A stretch of DNA of 64,000 bases from positions 5,037 to 69,036 of the IMG/VR virus record IMGVR_UViG_3300048033_000725; one strand, 5' to 3'. The position numbers and the translations under genes were made by a program. This document shows, piece after piece, positions 20,744 through 29,139 of this stretch; the stretch's first letter is position 1, and each line of letters begins with the position of its first letter. The notes under the pieces are model-generated. The model saw only the letters and a list, made by a program, of their open reading frames with translations, was not told the origin of the DNA and did no database searches. This DNA is from a virus.

Positions 20744-21409
20744 TTAAGCAGTATAGGTCGAAGCAGATTCCGTGGTGATGAAATATGTCACCTTAGACCC
20801 AGTCCAACGACTAATACCCTTAGATGTAATTTCTACATCATAGTCACCTGCAATCATTTTGAGGTTTTCAGTACGGAAAATCATTTTGAAAACTGCGCTA
20901 GTCTCAGCACCAACTTCAACATCAAATGTGTTTGAAGTAGAGTTTTTACTATCGAATGCAGTCAAAGTGATTTCGCCATTTGAACCAACAACAGCAACCT
21001 CTGGTGCAGACAAAATAGATGCCGCACGAAGGACTTCTGCAATCTGACCCTGAGTTACACGGAATTTGATTTCTGCGCTTTCCAAGAGAGGTGATAGGTC
21101 TTTGTCTGGTGGCGTGACAATCATTGATTTGTCAGTGTAGTAATATGTTGACTTGTTCTTACCCGAAGAAACAACAACAGAGTTTTCACCAAAATCGAAT
21201 TCTGGGTTTTCAAACAAAGAGATTGTTGCGAGAAATTGGTTCAAGTCATAAATCGCAAATGGTACATCAAAGGATTCTGAAACATCTGCTTGGGCAAGAA
21301 TGTTTTTTTGACTACTCACTGTTCGCAATGCACCACCTTCAACTGCGATGCCTGTGTTGATGGTGGAAAAGTTCTTCAATACGCTCAAGGTATCATTACT
21401 GATTTTCAT
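20744..21409 (-). CDS. 45: Sliding clamp (gp45)
   Basis: LKNFSTIN, FAIYDLNQFL, ENLK...GDY. Confidence 0.94.
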   Translation of the reverse strand: MKISNDTLSVLKNFSTINTGIAVEGGALRTVSSQKNILAQADVSESFDVPFAIYDLNQFLATISLFENPEFDFGENSVVVSSGKNKSTYYYTDKSMIVTPPDKDLSPLLESAEIKFRVTQGQIAEVLRAASILSAPEVAVVGSNGEITLTAFDSKNSTSNTFDVEVGAETSAVFKMIFRTENLKMIAGDYDVEITSKGISRWTGSKVTYFITTESASTYTA

Positions 21410-21837
21410 AGGGATTCTCCGTTCATAATTTTGTTTGCGTCTTCTAATGTAGATTTAATCCACTTAGCACACTCTTTTGCGGTAAATGCTTGCTTATCAA
21501 CAGCAGGCAATCTATCATCTTGACCAATACCTCTAATCACAGATGCAGATAGCATCATAGCAGAGGACATAATCAAGGCAACATGTGGTAGACCGCTACC
21601 ACCTTCAGCGTCATCATAATCGTGACCACGCTCAAAGTCTTCAATATGTCGTTTCAGACTATCAATCATTTGTTGGTAGGGTAGACCCTTTTCCCAATTT
21701 CGATTGTCATATTTTTGGGCACCATATTCAAGTGCGGCGGCACCTGCCGCTAATGCCTCTAAGGGCAACTGTCGAAAGTAAGGTACACCAATTGCTTCAC
21801 GCATTGCACCAGTTTCTGATTTATTCCAATTACTCAT
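21406..21837 (-). CDS. dATP/dGTP diphosphohydrolase-domain protein (DUF5664-like)
   Basis: TGAMRE, GAQKYDNRNWEKG, SLKRH, SGLPH. Confidence 0.75.
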   Translation of the reverse strand: MSNWNKSETGAMREAIGVPYFRQLPLEALAAGAAALEYGAQKYDNRNWEKGLPYQQMIDSLKRHIEDFERGHDYDDAEGGSGLPHVALIMSSAMMLSASVIRGIGQDDRLPAVDKQAFTAKECAKWIKSTLEDANKIMNGESL

Positions 21838-21908: not shown

Positions 21909-23066
21909 TTAGAAGGGTGCATATTCTTCAACTGCACCTTCTTCTTCTGTGGTACCGACTTCACCATCGACCTTAGTGTAAAGGTCGAGAAATGAGGTCT
22001 TAGTTTCTTCATCAAAGCGGTTCACACACAGTTCAATGGCTTTCATTTTGTCACCAAAGATTGAGTATGCTTTCACAATGTGAACCAGACGGCGGGTTGC
22101 GATAATCTCATCAACGCCACCCTCATAGAAGGTCTTGCGAATGATATCAGCCCAATCGACCAACTTACCGATGAAGCCATCATCTTCAAGGTTCAGACTA
22201 TCGAAAACCTTCTTCAGGATTTTCTTTTCAACTGTATTGCTGGCATATTCTTGCTCAACAGTAATCGGGAAACGCTCAAGGAACGCTTCATCAAGGATTT
22301 GAGCGGCGATGAAACGACCGTCATCAGAACCCTTACCTTTAGTGTTGGCAGTAGCAACAATGTTGAAACCAGGAGCAGGTTCGACAATCTCACCAGTCTT
22401 TTTATTGATGTAAGGCTTGCCTTCTGCAATCGCCTGAATGGCAAGCAACTTGTTACCACCACGGTCGATTTCATCAAGAACTAGAACAGCACCACGGCGC
22501 ATCGCATTCAGTACAGGACCTTCACGATAGACCACGTTACCATTGACTAGTGTATTGCCACCAATCAAATCGTCTTCATCAGTTTCGATAGAGACAGACA
22601 CTTTAATCATTTCACGCCCAGAAGCGGCACATGCCTGTTCAACCATGAACGTCTTACCGTTACCAGACAGACCAGTAACCATGACAGGATAGAACATCTT
22701 AGAAACAAGAATGTTTTTCAAATCATTGAAGAAGCCGAAAGGCACATAGAGAGGGTCTTTCGCAGGAACGAAATTCTCAGTAACAGTCTGGGTCATAGTC
22801 GCAGGTTTCATTGGGATAACTGCGGCAGCCGCCATAGCAGGTGCTTCTACTACTGGAGCAGGAGTTGCAGTCTGTGGTTGATTAACCATCGGGAGGCGAT
22901 ACTGACCACGCCCGACACGGTTTTCGTTCTTGGTGAAGATAAAGCGTGGGCGCTTGGCACCAATCTCTTCAGCAAGGTCGCAGATTTCTTGCTTGGTAAC
23001 AACAGCACCGAATTTTTCGAATGCAGTTTCAACGAAGCGGGTTTGTTCAGAAGTAAGATTTTTCAT
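21909..23066 (-). CDS. CobS-like MoxR AAA+ ATPase
   Basis: GLSGNGKT, LDEID, ATANTKG, AFLERF; start at ATG 23066. Confidence 0.9.
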   Translation of the reverse strand: MKNLTSEQTRFVETAFEKFGAVVTKQEICDLAEEIGAKRPRFIFTKNENRVGRGQYRLPMVNQPQTATPAPVVEAPAMAAAAVIPMKPATMTQTVTENFVPAKDPLYVPFGFFNDLKNILVSKMFYPVMVTGLSGNGKTFMVEQACAASGREMIKVSVSIETDEDDLIGGNTLVNGNVVYREGPVLNAMRRGAVLVLDEIDRGGNKLLAIQAIAEGKPYINKKTGEIVEPAPGFNIVATANTKGKGSDDGRFIAAQILDEAFLERFPITVEQEYASNTVEKKILKKVFDSLNLEDDGFIGKLVDWADIIRKTFYEGGVDEIIATRRLVHIVKAYSIFGDKMKAIELCVNRFDEETKTSFLDLYTKVDGEVGTTEEEGAVEEYAPF

Positions 23067-23123
23067 AATATAGCCTCTTTCAGAGTTTTCACATTGGGAC
23101 ACTTTCGCCCCATCAACATATAC

Positions 23124-23152
23124 ATTATAGGCTATCTAGCCTAAGAAGTCAA
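23124..23152 (-). promoter_or_regulatory. sigma70-type early promoter
   Basis: TTGACT-17-TATAAT. Confidence 0.85.
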
Positions 23153-23319
23153 GGATTATTTTGGTTCTTTTGGTGGTTTTTTTGGTTTTTTTCATCAATG
23201 AGCATATCGAAAATCAGTTTCGTATTTTCAATCTGTTCTCGGTTGCCGTTTCGAACTGCCATCATATGATTATCATATGCCATACGAAGGTCTGGGTCGA
23301 GGTCTTTTCTTTCTACCAT
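23149..23319 (-). CDS. Small hypothetical protein (56 aa), below the ORF-track cutoff
   Basis: MVERKDLDPDLRMAYDNHMMAVRNGNREQIENTKLIFDMLIDE...; TGATG overlap with the upstream stop. Confidence 0.55.
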   Translation of the reverse strand: MVERKDLDPDLRMAYDNHMMAVRNGNREQIENTKLIFDMLIDEKNQKNHQKNQNNP

Positions 23320-25505
23320 CATGCCGCAATCTCCATCAAGCGGTTCAACAATACACGGTTCGCTGTTTTGCTTTTAGAGTTTTTCATAAACGCAGTACGC
23401 AGTTTTGCTTTACTTGCACCAGCATCAACTTGAAGACCATCATCATTGGTCATCATATCGTCACCACCAGGGATTAAGAAGTAAGACTGGAAGCCAGCAT
23501 TTTTCACTTCAAGGAACTTGTTGGTACGAATGCTTTTCACTACGTCTTGGTCATAGATACCGTAGCGGGCAGCCTGACCACGAATTTCACGAGGCTTGTT
23601 ATCCATCACAAAGAACCCGATTGTGTTTACGCCGCAACGGTCACCAATAATTTCGATTAGAGTGTTAGACAGTGTTCGGTCTTTAACCTGATATTGCTGT
23701 TTAGTGACAGTATCTTGAACAACCGTCTGGGTGCGATAAGAACCACAGTAAACACCAGCGGTTGCTTTTTCACCGGCATACTCGACAACAGCCTCCGTAC
23801 CGTGACTGTCGCCATCAGTTAGAACGACCAGATTAGCAATCTGAATGCGTGATGCCTCAACAAACTTTTTAATCACTGAAGGCATACAAAGCAATGCATC
23901 ATCAAGAGGTGTACCACCCAGACCCAAAGGCTGTGGGATAAAGAATGAATAGTAACGACCATTTTCAAGACATTCACGCATTGCCATCATACCGAGGCAA
24001 GCATCGTTAAAATCAGAGAGTTTCATTTTGCTATCAAACAAGGTCATCAAAGCAAACTCACGGTCACCAGGAACAAGGGTACCAACTGGGTTTTGAAGCA
24101 ACTTTTCTTTAATCGCCTTGTAGTCTTGTGTTTCACCATAACCATAGTAGTGGTCACTGAAAGCATAGACTTCAAATGGGATTTTAACTTTTTTGCAGAA
24201 CATTACGAGGTTCAGCAACTGGTCGATTGTTGAAGACATGTTTGGTGCCATAGAACCAGACCAATCAAGTAGCATTACGAACCCGTGGTTCTTGCCACCT
24301 TGAATTGTAGTAACACGCTTAAAGAGGTCATCATTATACTTGTATGAGAAGATTTTCGCCATATCAAGTTCACCAGATTTTGCAGTGGTTGCCCGCTTGA
24401 ATTCGTCTGCCTTTTTACGCATTTCGAATTCTTTGACCATGTAGTTCACGACCTTCTGGTTTGAAGCACGCCACTCAGTCCACTTGGCTGTGATAGTGTT
24501 TTTGATTGATGGGTTGTCTTGCCAAATTTTTCGGTATTGCTTATTCACCTCAGCAAAGGGAACGACAAAATCTTTGGCATCAACAGTACCCATTGTCAAA
24601 TACTGATATTCTTTACCAGTGTTTTTGATAAGAGAACCTTCGTTTTGACGGAATGCTTTATCAGTCTGACTTTCAACAACCTCTTCAGGAGAAGTTGGTT
24701 CATCATTATAATCATCAAGGTCATAGTCATCATCTTCATAATCACCGTAACCTGCACCGTCTTCATCACCGTCTTCATCAGAAGCAGTGCCTTGACCATT
24801 CATATCAAAATCTTCTTGGTCACCCTCATCATCACCGTTCGCATCAGAACCGTCAGTTTGAGTATCTTCATTTTCTTGGGCGTCATCATTTTGAGCGCCT
24901 TTAAGAAGTTCCTCAACTTCATCTTCTAATTGCTCTTCAGCCTGTTCGATTTGCTGACCGTAAAGAGTTTCGGCAATCTCAACAACATCATCCCAAGTCT
25001 CAGCATTGGCAATTTTTTCAACCCACTCAGCCTCTTTACCCTCAAACTTGAGATTTACAAGAGTACCGAGTTTAAAGTGAAGATTGATACGGTCAATGAA
25101 AGCCATTTGAGTGATATCAGTACCAGCGATGCCGAAGAAATCACGCTGGAGCAAATCTGCATACCCCTCACGATATGCTTTCGCAAGACCGGGGTATTTT
25201 GCTTTAATCTTCTTTTCAATCCGAGCGTCTTCAATGACGTTCAGGTAGCCTTTCATTACACCAGACTGGTCATTAACAACGGCATCATGCCACCCATCTT
25301 CTGGAGTCCAGAGGGCGTGCCCAACTTCGTGGCTTGTCATCAAATCATAGAGATTGACGTTCAGACCGTCTTCTAAATTAGGAAGAGTAAGAACACGATT
25401 TTTAACATCAAACATCGCAGTTGGGACGTTTTGATGCTGTACAGTAATATTCTCTGTCGCCATTAGTTTGGCGAGTTGAGATTTTGTATTTGCTAGTTTG
25501 TTCAT
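23319..25505 (-). CDS. CobT-like protein: HExxH peptidase-like N-terminus, acidic linker, VWA domain
   Basis: HEVGH, NVIEDARIE, MIDAS DWSGSM...GGTPL...LTDG; start at ATG 25505. Confidence 0.85.
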   Translation of the reverse strand: MNKLANTKSQLAKLMATENITVQHQNVPTAMFDVKNRVLTLPNLEDGLNVNLYDLMTSHEVGHALWTPEDGWHDAVVNDQSGVMKGYLNVIEDARIEKKIKAKYPGLAKAYREGYADLLQRDFFGIAGTDITQMAFIDRINLHFKLGTLVNLKFEGKEAEWVEKIANAETWDDVVEIAETLYGQQIEQAEEQLEDEVEELLKGAQNDDAQENEDTQTDGSDANGDDEGDQEDFDMNGQGTASDEDGDEDGAGYGDYEDDDYDLDDYNDEPTSPEEVVESQTDKAFRQNEGSLIKNTGKEYQYLTMGTVDAKDFVVPFAEVNKQYRKIWQDNPSIKNTITAKWTEWRASNQKVVNYMVKEFEMRKKADEFKRATTAKSGELDMAKIFSYKYNDDLFKRVTTIQGGKNHGFVMLLDWSGSMAPNMSSTIDQLLNLVMFCKKVKIPFEVYAFSDHYYGYGETQDYKAIKEKLLQNPVGTLVPGDREFALMTLFDSKMKLSDFNDACLGMMAMRECLENGRYYSFFIPQPLGLGGTPLDDALLCMPSVIKKFVEASRIQIANLVVLTDGDSHGTEAVVEYAGEKATAGVYCGSYRTQTVVQDTVTKQQYQVKDRTLSNTLIEIIGDRCGVNTIGFFVMDNKPREIRGQAARYGIYDQDVVKSIRTNKFLEVKNAGFQSYFLIPGGDDMMTNDDGLQVDAGASKAKLRTAFMKNSKSKTANRVLLNRLMEIAA

Positions 25506-25537
25506 AATGTATCTCACTCTTTTCACTCTATATATGC

Positions 25538-25679: not shown

Positions 25680-26363
25680 TTATTTGATAGCGATTGCACC
25701 CACGAACAAGTGGTTCTGCCAGAACGTCTGAACACTTTCGAAACCAGCAATCTCAAGCATTTCATTAAGTTCAGACCATGTGTTGGGTTTGAGCATGTGT
25801 CGTAGTGTTTGCTCTTTATCCATGATATCTTCGGCTTCGAAACTCTCACGCTTGAAATCGTAGTACATGAAAGTAAGCATGTCTTGTACCTTTGAGGAAC
25901 AGGAATATGTCTTTTCACCAAAAATAAATGCACCACCTGGATTCAGTGCTTCGTACACTTGGTTAAGTGTTTCTTGTCGGTCTGCACGAGGCATGAACTG
26001 CAAAGTGAAGATTGAAGTAATCAGAGATGCATTGTACATATCTGCATTACGAATATCTTCACTTTGCAACTCAAGGTCATCGGTCTCATATTCCATCATA
26101 CGCTTCTGCATATCTTCATAGAAACCAGCCGCACATTCAATACCAACGTAATGTGCGTCTGGTGCGAAAGTACGATTTTGGTCAATCATTGCACCAAGTG
26201 TCTTACCTGTCGAACAACCCAAGTCATATACATGTGTGTGGTCTTCAACAAAGTATTGTGACATTTTTACAATATCATCGTGTAGTGTAGAATAGTGACG
26301 AATTGATTTGTCAATGTGGTTATCGAAACCCTCATCACGGTGTGCAAAAGTAAAATCAGCCAT
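25680..26363 (-). CDS. cmoA: CmoA-like carboxy-S-adenosylmethionine synthase
   Basis: FDNHIDKSIRHY, VYDLGCSTG, FTLQF, LNPGGAFIFGEK, and C-terminal similarity to CmoA. Confidence 0.8.
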   Translation of the reverse strand: MADFTFAHRDEGFDNHIDKSIRHYSTLHDDIVKMSQYFVEDHTHVYDLGCSTGKTLGAMIDQNRTFAPDAHYVGIECAAGFYEDMQKRMMEYETDDLELQSEDIRNADMYNASLITSIFTLQFMPRADRQETLNQVYEALNPGGAFIFGEKTYSCSSKVQDMLTFMYYDFKRESFEAEDIMDKEQTLRHMLKPNTWSELNEMLEIAGFESVQTFWQNHLFVGAIAIK

Positions 26364-27495
26364 TATTAAATTCCTTTAGAATGTTCTCATATATTGAAGT
26401 AGCAACTGCTTTATACATCAATGGTGCAACTGCACGACCAAGACGCTCAACTTGAGCATCAAATTCACCTGTTAGAATATAATCTTCTGGGAAACCCATC
26501 AGACGTTTACATTCTTTGATTGTCAATTTACGATTTGCTTCTGGGTGAAACACACCAGACATACCACGCTTCTGACCTTGCTGAGTTAGAGTTGGAGAAG
26601 GCATATCAGGACACGGACGTATCATATTGAAACAACTTGCCTTCGGGTTCCAATCTCTAAACTGTGGGTCACTTGGTTTTGTGTGCTTTGGTGGGTTGAA
26701 CGGAAGAGGTTCAATAAACTTCTTCTGGTATGAACCCTCGACAAAATCAAGCAACATCTGAACTTCTTCTTCATCATTTTCAATATCAGCAAGTGCTTCA
26801 CGCATACTAATATGCTTTTCTATAGTCGGTTGAGGGAATACATTATGCAAATTCAACCAAGAGATACCAACTTTATCGCATACATCTTCACGAACACAAA
26901 TAAAGATTGTGCGTTCTCTTGCTTGAGGTACACCATAATTTGCACCATTCAAAACTTCATAAGTTACATTATAACCAATCTCTTCGAATGCATTGATAAA
27001 CGCATTTAATTTACCTTTCGCTTCACCGAAAGTAATGCCCTTAACATTTTCTGCAACGATAACTTTTGGCTGTACACCTTCAGCAATGCGAATAAATTCA
27101 TAAAAGAGGTCTTCGATTGCGACTTGCTTTTTACCGTCTGAGTAGTTCTTCTCTTTACCCCAACCCTTTTCTCGCTTTCCTGCGACTGAGAAAGCAGAGC
27201 AAGGAGGTGAACCGTCAAGTATGTCGAGTTCGCCTTTAGCAACTCCCGCCATATTAAGAAAGTCTTCTGGTGTGTATTTTTTGATATCATCGACAAGTAC
27301 CTTTGTGTCAGGGAAGTTTGCAGTATATGTCTCCACTGCCGCCTCTACAAACTCATTAATCAAAAGTATGTTCGAACCAGCCAAACGATAACCAAGAGAC
27401 GAACCGCCGCCCCCTGCAAAGCAACTAATTGTAGTAAATTTTTTCTGAGATGATAGTGCTTTCACATCATCAACAGTATATTTTTCATATCTCAT
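26356..27495 (-). CDS. C5 DNA cytosine methyltransferase homolog; probable carboxymethyltransferase
   Basis: FAGGGG (I), GSPPC (IV), ENV (VI), QARER (VIII), RLMGFP (IX), GRAV (X; normally GNAV). Confidence 0.88.
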   Translation of the reverse strand: MRYEKYTVDDVKALSSQKKFTTISCFAGGGGSSLGYRLAGSNILLINEFVEAAVETYTANFPDTKVLVDDIKKYTPEDFLNMAGVAKGELDILDGSPPCSAFSVAGKREKGWGKEKNYSDGKKQVAIEDLFYEFIRIAEGVQPKVIVAENVKGITFGEAKGKLNAFINAFEEIGYNVTYEVLNGANYGVPQARERTIFICVREDVCDKVGISWLNLHNVFPQPTIEKHISMREALADIENDEEEVQMLLDFVEGSYQKKFIEPLPFNPPKHTKPSDPQFRDWNPKASCFNMIRPCPDMPSPTLTQQGQKRGMSGVFHPEANRKLTIKECKRLMGFPEDYILTGEFDAQVERLGRAVAPLMYKAVATSIYENILKEFNNG

Positions 27496-27500
27496 ATCAA

Positions 27501-27548
27501 CACTTTTCTGCGGTTATTTTAAGTATTATCGCACACTTTTATGCGGTT
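27501..27548. repeat. 15-bp direct repeat flanking the promoter -10 box
   Basis: CACTTTTCTGCGGTT (27501-27515) and CACTTTTATGCGGTT (27534-27548). Confidence 0.7.
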
Positions 27549-27553
27549 GTCAA
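27525..27553 (-). promoter_or_regulatory. sigma70-type promoter for the MTase-cmoA pair
   Basis: TTGACA-17-GATAAT with TG extension. Confidence 0.7.
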
Positions 27554-28362
27554 GTAAAAAGTGAAGATGAGGGCGAATAATTTACATAGTCCCGAACCAA
27601 ATCCATAGTGCGACCTCTATTGCGATAATTCAACTCATTGTCTTCAAGCAACTTTTCAAAGTATTCTGGAATACCTGCGACAAGTTGAAGGTTTGCATGT
27701 TTACGTTTCTTGGGCAGTTCGTTGAATTCTTCATATGCTTCAATGATTGGTGCTTTCTGATATGGCTTGTTAAAGAAGTCATGGTCATACTGCATCATCC
27801 AGTCTTTCACACTTTCACGCACATAAGGTGCGACTAAGTTTGCCTCAATCTCTTCGCATAACTGCTCTTGCTGTCTAATGCCTGCTGGATTGTCTGCACC
27901 GAAGTAGTCATTGCGAAACTTGTCGAACAACTCTTTCGTATGTTTAAAATGAATATTCGCACGTTTAGATACGCCATACCACCCATCTGCCGCAACACCC
28001 GAAAGTACATGCTTCTCTTTAATATGCGGATAAACATACAAGAAAGGGAATGTACATTCAACGTGAGTTTTTTTCTTACAATCGTAATATCGCATCAACC
28101 GCAAAAAGTCATCTTTAACATTACTCACTGGAACATCAATTTCATGGTGGTCCCAACCAAAAATCTCCGCCGCTTCTTTTGCGGCAATACTGTCTGGAGT
28201 TTCTTGACCATTCACATACATTGTATATGTATGAACATTCTTACCCAAACGCATTGCAGAAAATGCACATGTTAAACTATCAACACCACCAGACATTAAC
28301 ACGGCAACATCCTTGCTTGGTGCTTCTTCATCTACAATCTGTGTGATTAGTTTATCAATCAT
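27550..28362 (-). CDS. Asparagine synthetase-like ATP-dependent amide ligase (synthetase domain only)
   Basis: PP-loop LMSGGVDS, LSGVAADGWYG, APY; no N-terminal glutaminase domain. Confidence 0.8.
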   Translation of the reverse strand: MIDKLITQIVDEEAPSKDVAVLMSGGVDSLTCAFSAMRLGKNVHTYTMYVNGQETPDSIAAKEAAEIFGWDHHEIDVPVSNVKDDFLRLMRYYDCKKKTHVECTFPFLYVYPHIKEKHVLSGVAADGWYGVSKRANIHFKHTKELFDKFRNDYFGADNPAGIRQQEQLCEEIEANLVAPYVRESVKDWMMQYDHDFFNKPYQKAPIIEAYEEFNELPKKRKHANLQLVAGIPEYFEKLLEDNELNYRNRGRTMDLVRDYVNYSPSSSLFT

Positions 28363-28772
28363 ATCTTACTCACCTGTACGCCACTTTTAAGTAAAAAGTT
28401 AATCCCATCTCTACTTTTATAGTGGTCCCTATAATATATTGTTTTTATGCCTGACTGATATATCAGTTTTGCACAATCAATGCATGGAGATGCAGTACAG
28501 AACAATATTGCACCATCTGCGCTTTCTGTGCTTTTCGCAATCTTTGTGATTGCATTCGCCTCAGCATGTAATACTTCTCTCTTAGTAACTAAACCAGATT
28601 TCGTTTCTTCTTCACATACGTTAGTCCAACCAGCGGGCATTCCATTATAACCAATACTAACAATCTTATCATCTTTTACAACCACACACCCAACTTTAAG
28701 ACGTACCGCAGAAGATAACTGTGCGTATACTTCTGCGGCATCCATATGGGCTTTAATGAACTTCTGCTTCAT
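28359..28772 (-). CDS. cd: dCMP deaminase
   Basis: GYNG, HAEANAI, SPCIDC; start at ATG 28772 (MKQKFIKAH). Confidence 0.93.
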   Translation of the reverse strand: MKQKFIKAHMDAAEVYAQLSSAVRLKVGCVVVKDDKIVSIGYNGMPAGWTNVCEEETKSGLVTKREVLHAEANAITKIAKSTESADGAILFCTASPCIDCAKLIYQSGIKTIYYRDHYKSRDGINFLLKSGVQVSKI

Positions 28773-29139
28773 CACTATCCTCAATTTGCATTTGCTCAAG
28801 TGCCTCTGGTGGCATTTCTTCATACAAGTCTTGGTTCTTATGCCAAACATTGAATACATCTTGAACGTTAGCGTGGCGAGTTGTTTCCATATCGGCAACT
28901 TCTTCGTAGATTTTCTTTTCAAACTCACCGAATGTTGGGTTCATCCACATATGAAGTTCATTGCCAGTTTCCATATCAGTCACTTCAACAAATACGATTT
29001 CTTGCGTCTCTAAAACAAACACGGCTGTCATAGCATCGTCAAACTGTAGCACCCAGGAATCGCCAAAATCTTCAAACATAAATGGTCCGCCCTCAACAAT
29101 GCGTAACCCTGTTGCTTCAATCAAGTCATTAAATTTCAT
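28753..29139 (-). CDS. Acidic hypothetical protein
   Basis: 128-aa ORF with AGGAG RBS. Confidence 0.65.
   Translation of the reverse strand: MKFNDLIEATGLRIVEGGPFMFEDFGDSWVLQFDDAMTAVFVLETQEIVFVEVTDMETGNELHMWMNPTFGEFEKKIYEEVADMETTRHANVQDVFNVWHKNQDLYEEMPPEALEQMQIEDSDEAEVH

Follow-up and report, generated by a model that had tools for sequence, protein, structure and literature searches.

An open reading frame of an uncultivated virus, P0001, most probably encodes a CmoX-type DNA cytosine C5-carboxymethyltransferase and belongs to a three-gene module, cmoY–cmoX–cmoA, whose pathway would run as in Synechococcus phage S-B43. We place the probability of this reading at roughly 0.88. The sequence analysed, hereafter the window, is a stretch of 64,000 nucleotides from a linear viral record of 69,036 bases that is estimated to be 38% complete. 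Our reading draws on sequence homology and residue conservation, on the genes around P0001 and on its modelled fold, with identities to characterised enzymes of only 49–56% for P0001, CmoA and CmoY; reaction chemistry, target motif and amine are those expected from the orthologues.

The reference system was described by Yang et al. (Nat Commun 2025, PMC12783734), who showed that the CmoX of phage S-B43 (SpCmoX) makes 5-carboxymethylcytosine (5cxmC) from carboxy-SAM (Cx-SAM). SpCmoX acts at GC motifs and with Cx-SAM only, the wild-type enzyme refusing SAM (PMC12783734). Its cofactor is produced by SpCmoA from SAM and prephenate, and SpCmoY, with ATP and glycine, yields 5gcxmC, which is present in S-B43 virion DNA (PMC12783734). 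In the 1.9 Å structure of SpCmoX with Cx-SAM (8YF3), Arg350, located at the position of HhaI Asn304, directly contacts the carboxymethyl group, and further cofactor contacts are made by F25, E47, F48 and D69; the authors liken Arg350 to the engineered N374K substitution of M.MpeI (PMC12783734). Using SPPC plus R350 as a marker, they retrieved 5,615 candidates from IMG/VR v4, UniProtKB and MGnify, with 4,257 CmoA proteins and 2,251 ligases encoded on the same contigs (PMC12783734). The sequence specificities of other CmoX enzymes and the amide products of the 5cxmC pathway are left open by the authors (PMC12783734). Because IMG/VR was searched, the contig that carries P0001 is probably among the 5,615 candidates.

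These results bear directly on a first-pass annotation of the same sequence, which had proposed that a natural basic residue in motif X binds the Cx-SAM carboxylate and that this residue could serve as a marker for finding other carboxymethyltransferases. The binding role is what 8YF3 shows for SpCmoX Arg350, with which Arg354 of P0001 aligns, and the marker use is the one already made of SPPC and R350 (PMC12783734). The proposal was right and, with both in print, is no longer new. The annotation had also suggested following cofactor preference in an R-to-N mutant. The published R350N variant of SpCmoX accepts neither SAM nor Cx-SAM (PMC12783734), so that the R-to-N change abolished activity and brought about no cofactor switch.

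The features of the module are collected in the table below. Profile searches confirmed ORF 26356–27495 as a homologue of C5 cytosine DNA methyltransferases at the level of its protein sequence: PF00145 was matched at E 5.6e-59 over residues 20–369, covering profile positions 1–323 of 324, and TIGR00675 (dcm) at 177.5 bits. The minus-strand translation includes ...AQVERLGRAVAPLMYK... and ...FDAQVERLGRAVAPLMYK.... The Arg of G-R-A-V is encoded by CGT (minus-strand reading; ACG in plus-strand letters), and the nonapeptide ERLGRAVAP occupies minus-strand positions 26422–26448; the peptide and the Arg codon had been read correctly before, under a motif range (26425–26450) that is two to three bases off and was given without a strand. 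In an alignment of 28 sequences, P98 and C99 are invariant, as are E149, R193 and R195 of P0001, looked at for the cytosine-binding Glu and Arg expected of a CmoX. The motif-X Arg is retained in all 16 same-clade members aligned, and with this conservation across the clade it is more than an accident in a single protein.

Table. Features of the cmoY–cmoX–cmoA region, in window coordinates
Feature	Position	Strand	Basis
cmoA, carboxy-SAM synthase homologue, 227 aa, class-I methyltransferase fold	25680..26363	-	TIGR00740, identity to SpCmoA
cmoX, DNA cytosine C5-carboxymethyltransferase homologue P0001, 379 aa	26356..27495	-	PF00145, match to 8yf3_A
Arg354 codon, motif X, equivalent to SpCmoX Arg350 and the M.HhaI Asn304 position	26434..26436	-	sequence and alignments
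motif IV S96-P97-P98-C99 with catalytic Cys, equivalent to SpCmoX S95-C98	27199..27210	-	alignment
sigma-70-like promoter match, TTGACA, 17 nt spacer, TG-extended GATAAT, 11/12	27525..27553	-	consensus match only
cmoY, ATP-dependent amide ligase homologue, 270 aa	27550..28362	-	PF00733, identity to SpCmoY

Comparison with proteins of known structure placed P0001 closest to SpCmoX. It matched 8yf3_A end to end (E 3.7e-110 over residues 6–374), and the next PDB matches, HaeIII, DNMT1 and HhaI, came in at 5e-25 or worse. BLASTP against the S-B43 CmoX gave 51% identity over the full length. R354 lies opposite R350 in both the phmmer and the BLASTP alignments; counted on the latter, S96–C99 fall opposite S95–C98, and F26, E48, F49 and D70 fall opposite the cofactor-contacting F25, E47, F48 and D69. 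An AF2 model of P0001, computed with the 28-sequence alignment as input, reached a pLDDT of 91.5, and a Foldseek search with this model returned 8yf3 first (E 7.8e-40, TM 0.82/0.93, TMt 0.93), with the runner-up at 1.1e-20. On account of the homology to 8YF3, the Arg354 side chain is predicted to face the Cx-SAM carboxylate. P0001 can thus be regarded as an uncharacterised CmoX relative that would use Cx-SAM and make 5cxmC.

The three genes form a tight row on the minus strand, in which the cmoX stop and the cmoA start overlap by 8 bases. The best NCBIfam match of the cmoA product is TIGR00740 (CmoA), at 129.6 bits. This lies under the cut-off of 193.3 bits, but a sub-cut-off score was dropped as an argument against CmoA membership since the verified SpCmoA scores lower still, at 115.6 bits. 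The window CmoA is 56% identical to SpCmoA and matches the CmoA/YecO structures 1im8 and 4gek over its full length (E about 8e-27); by analogy, SAM and prephenate would be its substrates for Cx-SAM synthesis. The cmoY product consists of the asparagine-synthetase C-terminal PP-loop domain only, the glutaminase domain being absent (PF00733, E 7.7e-17; TIGR01536 matched at positions 239–368 only). Against SpCmoY it aligns across 263 aa with 49% identity (E 5e-91), the SGGVDS PP-loop being kept. The 54-base gap that precedes cmoX contains a promoter-like match, in a region with 17 sigma-70-like matches against 14.1 expected from shuffled sequences. A dCMP deaminase gene directly upstream of the row (28359–28928) was considered as a further member and rejected, being a common T4-like nucleotide-metabolism gene that lies apart from the module in S-B43. 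At the nucleotide level (megablast), the three genes together had no match in the phage collection; relatives surfaced at the protein level.

Since tRNA modification is the role that cellular CmoA serves (PMC12783734), the phage CmoA might instead feed tRNA cmo5U modification and so boost host translation, its place beside a methyltransferase gene being a coincidence. CmoB (PF08003) had no match in the 69-kb record, a result that fits a DNA rather than a tRNA use of Cx-SAM; it is weak evidence because the record is a fragment and a CmoB gene could sit elsewhere. S-B43, whose CmoA serves the DNA pathway, likewise has no CmoB (PMC12783734). The 8-base overlap and the recurrence of the CmoA–CmoX pairing in 22 related loci further argue against coincidence, and we consider a tRNA role of this gene exceedingly unlikely. 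Carboxymethylation of DNA remains our preferred reading.

Co-occurrence of a motif-X Arg with a neighbouring cmoA, a check put forward in the first-pass annotation, was assessed in 74 related viral-contig loci. The residue opposite R354 (tblastn; MAFFT) decided the class of each locus, and every ORF of 90 aa or more was searched with our own CmoA HMM built from seven sequences; no rows were dropped, and the loci in which motif X was not visible were kept as a class of their own. The predicted association was recovered: a CmoA-like ORF (E ≤ 1.6e-71) was found in 22 of 23 Arg-type loci as against 0 of 43 loci with Asn (30), Met (12) or another residue (1), counts that do not represent independent events, as the loci are related to one another. 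None of the 8 loci with motif X not seen carried such an ORF. For the weakest tblastn CmoA matches (L020–L024), the best NCBIfam match is still CmoA. One locus (L035) that a second tblastn HSP had suggested to be Asn-type was counted as Met-type, because MAFFT alignment of its ORF shows GMSVPP. The single Arg-type locus lacking CmoA (L018) is a contig of 4.1 kb; it carries tandem C5-methyltransferase genes (L018:1-1982), with an incomplete gene, at the edge of the contig, lying directly upstream of the Arg-type one.

A second set of 20 loci, in which two contigs occur twice, gave CmoA in 3 of 5 Arg-type and 0 of 10 Asn-type loci, motif X being unseen in the other 5; in both Arg-type loci without CmoA the methyltransferase gene lies at the contig edge. 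All four cultured phages with an Arg-type enzyme (S-B43, S-CRM01, Moraxella Mcat8 and Dickeya AD1) carry a CmoA-like gene, and no CmoA-like gene was found in the complete 141,372-base genome of the Leu-type phage Melnitz. In a maximum-likelihood tree of 38 rows, the Arg enzymes fall into one clade with support 99/98, which also includes two long-branched non-Arg rows, Melnitz (Leu) and L025 (Asn), both without CmoA. The L025 gene (L025:10001-11140), nested in the Arg clade, reads ARIGNSVAPP, which we read as a reversion; its placement is uncertain because the branch is long. No CmoA was found in the 10 kb upstream of it, and on the downstream side about 700 bases remain before the contig end.

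Two of the cultured phages show variant arrangements. The Arg-type CmoX-like gene of Dickeya AD1 (L080:4956-7085, 709 aa) contains an intein (Hint_2 / Intein_splicing matches) directly after the catalytic PC motif, and an intein-bearing Arg-type form likewise occurs in Erwinia jumbo phages. In AD1 the CmoA-like gene, which the model matched in two pieces, lies about 17 kb from the CmoX-like gene. In the 40-kb Moraxella catarrhalis phage Mcat8 (L079:4445-6645), genes for ParB_N, an Arg-type CmoX-like protein and a CmoA-like protein stand in a row just upstream of the terminase; the CmoA-like gene is distant (62 bits), and all three are annotated as hypothetical.

P0001 passes every generic C5-methyltransferase model, and motif X tolerates Leu, Met and Lys in related, presumably active enzymes. 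It could accordingly be an ordinary SAM-dependent 5-methylcytosine methyltransferase in which the Arg is incidental, with the CmoA-like neighbour serving another purpose. Such an enzyme is at odds with the behaviour of wild-type SpCmoX, which refuses SAM (PMC12783734) and is 51% identical to P0001, and with an Arg that is kept across the clade and tracks CmoA, the clade members that lost the Arg being also without CmoA. We judge it very unlikely, and continue with P0001 as a carboxymethyltransferase.

To survey the range of residues found at motif X, 1.84 billion representatives were scanned with phmmer, with 28,516 matches at E ≤ 1e-3, 1,029 of them at E ≤ 1e-30. Among the best 150 of the 28,516 matches plus the query (n = 151), the residue is Arg in 103, Asn in 28, Leu in 5, Lys and Met in 2 each, and Tyr, Gln and Asp in 1 each, with 8 fragments off the site. 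The two natural Lys variants, P0014 (IGKSVPP) and P0125 (MGKMVAP), echo the engineered M.MpeI N374K. Searches for Lys-type contigs, comprising viral-contig scans with both and a metagenome-contig scan with P0014, gave relatives of at most 46% identity, none with Lys.

Leu at motif X (IGLMVAP) characterises the CmoX-clade relatives in Methylophilales phage Melnitz-3 (L003:4001-6185) and in loci L108–L116. The Melnitz enzyme is 43% identical to P0001, and the next gene downstream encodes a Tet_JBP dioxygenase (PF12851, E 3.6e-11). In all nine Leu-type loci fetched, the start of the TET-like gene lies within about 35 bases of the methyltransferase stop, and CmoA is present in none of the nine; a TET-like match was found in 0 of the 94 other loci. 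The substrate of phage TETs is 5mC that their associated C5-methyltransferases have placed at GpC (PMC8256090). The product of the Leu-type enzymes is presumably 5mC, for subsequent oxidation to 5hmC. The motif-X residue thus seems to track partner chemistry in this methyltransferase clade, Arg going with CmoA and Leu with TET. The main text of the CmoX paper (PMC12783734) contains none of the terms 'TET', 'dioxygenase' and 'Melnitz'. A sister class of phage C5-methyltransferases (L029–L035, L037–L041), sharing the 'REKGWGKEK' segment after motif IV, has Met at motif X (GMSVPP) and neither CmoA nor TET nearby. In three of these loci (L029, L031, L039), a ParB_N protein is encoded directly upstream of the methyltransferase, near terminase genes.

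The part of P0001 that would recognise the target is far less similar to SpCmoX than the rest. Residues 206–300, between motifs VIII and IX, are 32% identical to SpCmoX, as against 64% for residues 1–205. The target motif may therefore differ from that of SpCmoX, and GpC is only a candidate target here. The window is 39.9% GC, with a GpC observed/expected ratio of 1.02, and certain 4-base palindromes are extremely scarce: AGCT occurs 0 times (122 expected), GGCC once (60), GATC 0 times (213), CGCG 9 times (88) and CCGG 10 times (63), with GCGC, TGCA and others near expectation. This avoidance is common to the close relatives L005, L006 and L008; it is not seen in 50 kb of S-B43. The purging of AGCT and GGCC is unlike what would be expected if every GpC were reliably protected, which suggests that GpC-containing AGCT and GGCC sites are not, and it is an odd avoidance in a phage that presumably modifies GpC.

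The diverged recognition region and the purged sites are what favours the same CmoA–CmoX chemistry directed at a motif other than plain GpC, coupled to an amine other than glycine, or both; in addition, several ligase clusters probably use other amines (PMC12783734). On the other side, the window CmoY shares nearly half of its residues with the glycine-using SpCmoY, and phage C5-methyltransferases of related clades generally favour GpC (PMC8256090). We regard this variant as rather doubtful, and retain the S-B43 pathway as the working reading. Equally tentative is a combined proposal in which motif X acts as a switch (Arg with CmoA and 5cxmC, Leu with TET/JBP and 5hmC, Met with ParB_N, and rare Lys) and the window phage, avoiding AGCT, GGCC and GATC, modifies a motif that is not plain GpC or attaches an amine that is not glycine.

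The window derives from an uncultivated T4-like marine phage. Its genes, nearly all on the minus strand, include those for gp23 capsid, scaffold, UvsY, UvsW, gp45 clamp, gp44 clamp loader and a gp46/47-like pair. The capsid protein is nearest to that of the Methylophilales phage Melnitz (65%), followed by Pelagibacter myophages and others at about 60%. Downstream of cmoA (21909–25526, minus strand) lie a 735-aa ORF that neither Pfam nor NCBIfam matches and an AAA_5 ATPase of 397 aa, an arrangement that resembles the CobS and 'peptidase' pair annotated in S-B43. For a 143-aa protein encoded at 21406–21837 (minus strand), the Pfam match is the dATP/dGTP diphosphohydrolase N-terminal domain (PF18909, E 7.9e-22), a family known from phage purine-replacement pathways.

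In the pathway that we propose for the module, CmoA would convert SAM and host prephenate into carboxy-SAM. CmoX would then flip the cytosine out of the DNA, attack its C6 with Cys99 and transfer the carboxymethyl group of Cx-SAM to C5, with Arg354, in place of the Asn of ordinary methyltransferases, holding the extra carboxylate of the cofactor. CmoY would adenylate the new carboxylate and ligate an amine to it, most likely glycine, giving 5-glycylcarboxymethylcytosine. The modification may shield the phage DNA from host restriction enzymes.

The mechanism itself was shown experimentally in December 2025 (PMC12783734), and the window adds no new principle to it. What is new is an uncharacterised CmoY–CmoX–CmoA module, about 50% diverged from the one studied and carried by a T4-like phage of marine origin, with a capsid nearest to those of phages of heterotrophic bacteria (Methylophilales, Pelagibacter). 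Since both the module and its DNA-recognition region have diverged, it is a reasonable candidate for widening the known 5cxmC specificities and amide products. Arg, Leu or Met at one position, sorting the clade by partner (CmoA, TET or ParB_N), offers a cheap predictor of the modification chemistry of uncultivated phages.

Among known systems, P0001 most resembles SpCmoX (8YF3), sharing with it the SPPC motif, the motif-X Arg, the adenine and ribose contacts, and the CmoA and CmoY partners. It differs in gene order, which is Y-X-A in the window and A-Y-X in S-B43, in a target-recognition region only about one-third identical (about 32%), and in a phage background whose capsid is nearest to Melnitz and Pelagibacter myophages, not to cyanophages. 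The phage TET-associated GpC C5-methyltransferases (PMC8256090) belong to the same methyltransferase clade, the Melnitz enzyme nesting among the Arg-type ones, and are likewise post-replicative installers of a 'handle' for hypermodification, whereas the TET-linked enzymes of Melnitz and the fetched loci are set apart from P0001 by Leu at motif X, a downstream TET/JBP gene and the lack of CmoA. With M.HhaI and M.HaeIII, P0001 shares the fold and the catalytic motifs (PDB E 1e-19 to 5e-25; Foldseek TMt about 0.75); in those enzymes the motif-X residue is Asn (HhaI N304, PMC12783734) and the cofactor is SAM, and in the alignment the CmoX family has an added 'AGKREKGWGKEK' segment after motif IV. 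In M.MpeI N374K, as in P0001, a basic residue occupies the motif-X Asn position and enables Cx-SAM use (PMC12783734); there it is an engineered Lys in a bacterial CpG enzyme, whereas the window has a natural Arg in a phage enzyme accompanied by its own putative Cx-SAM synthase.
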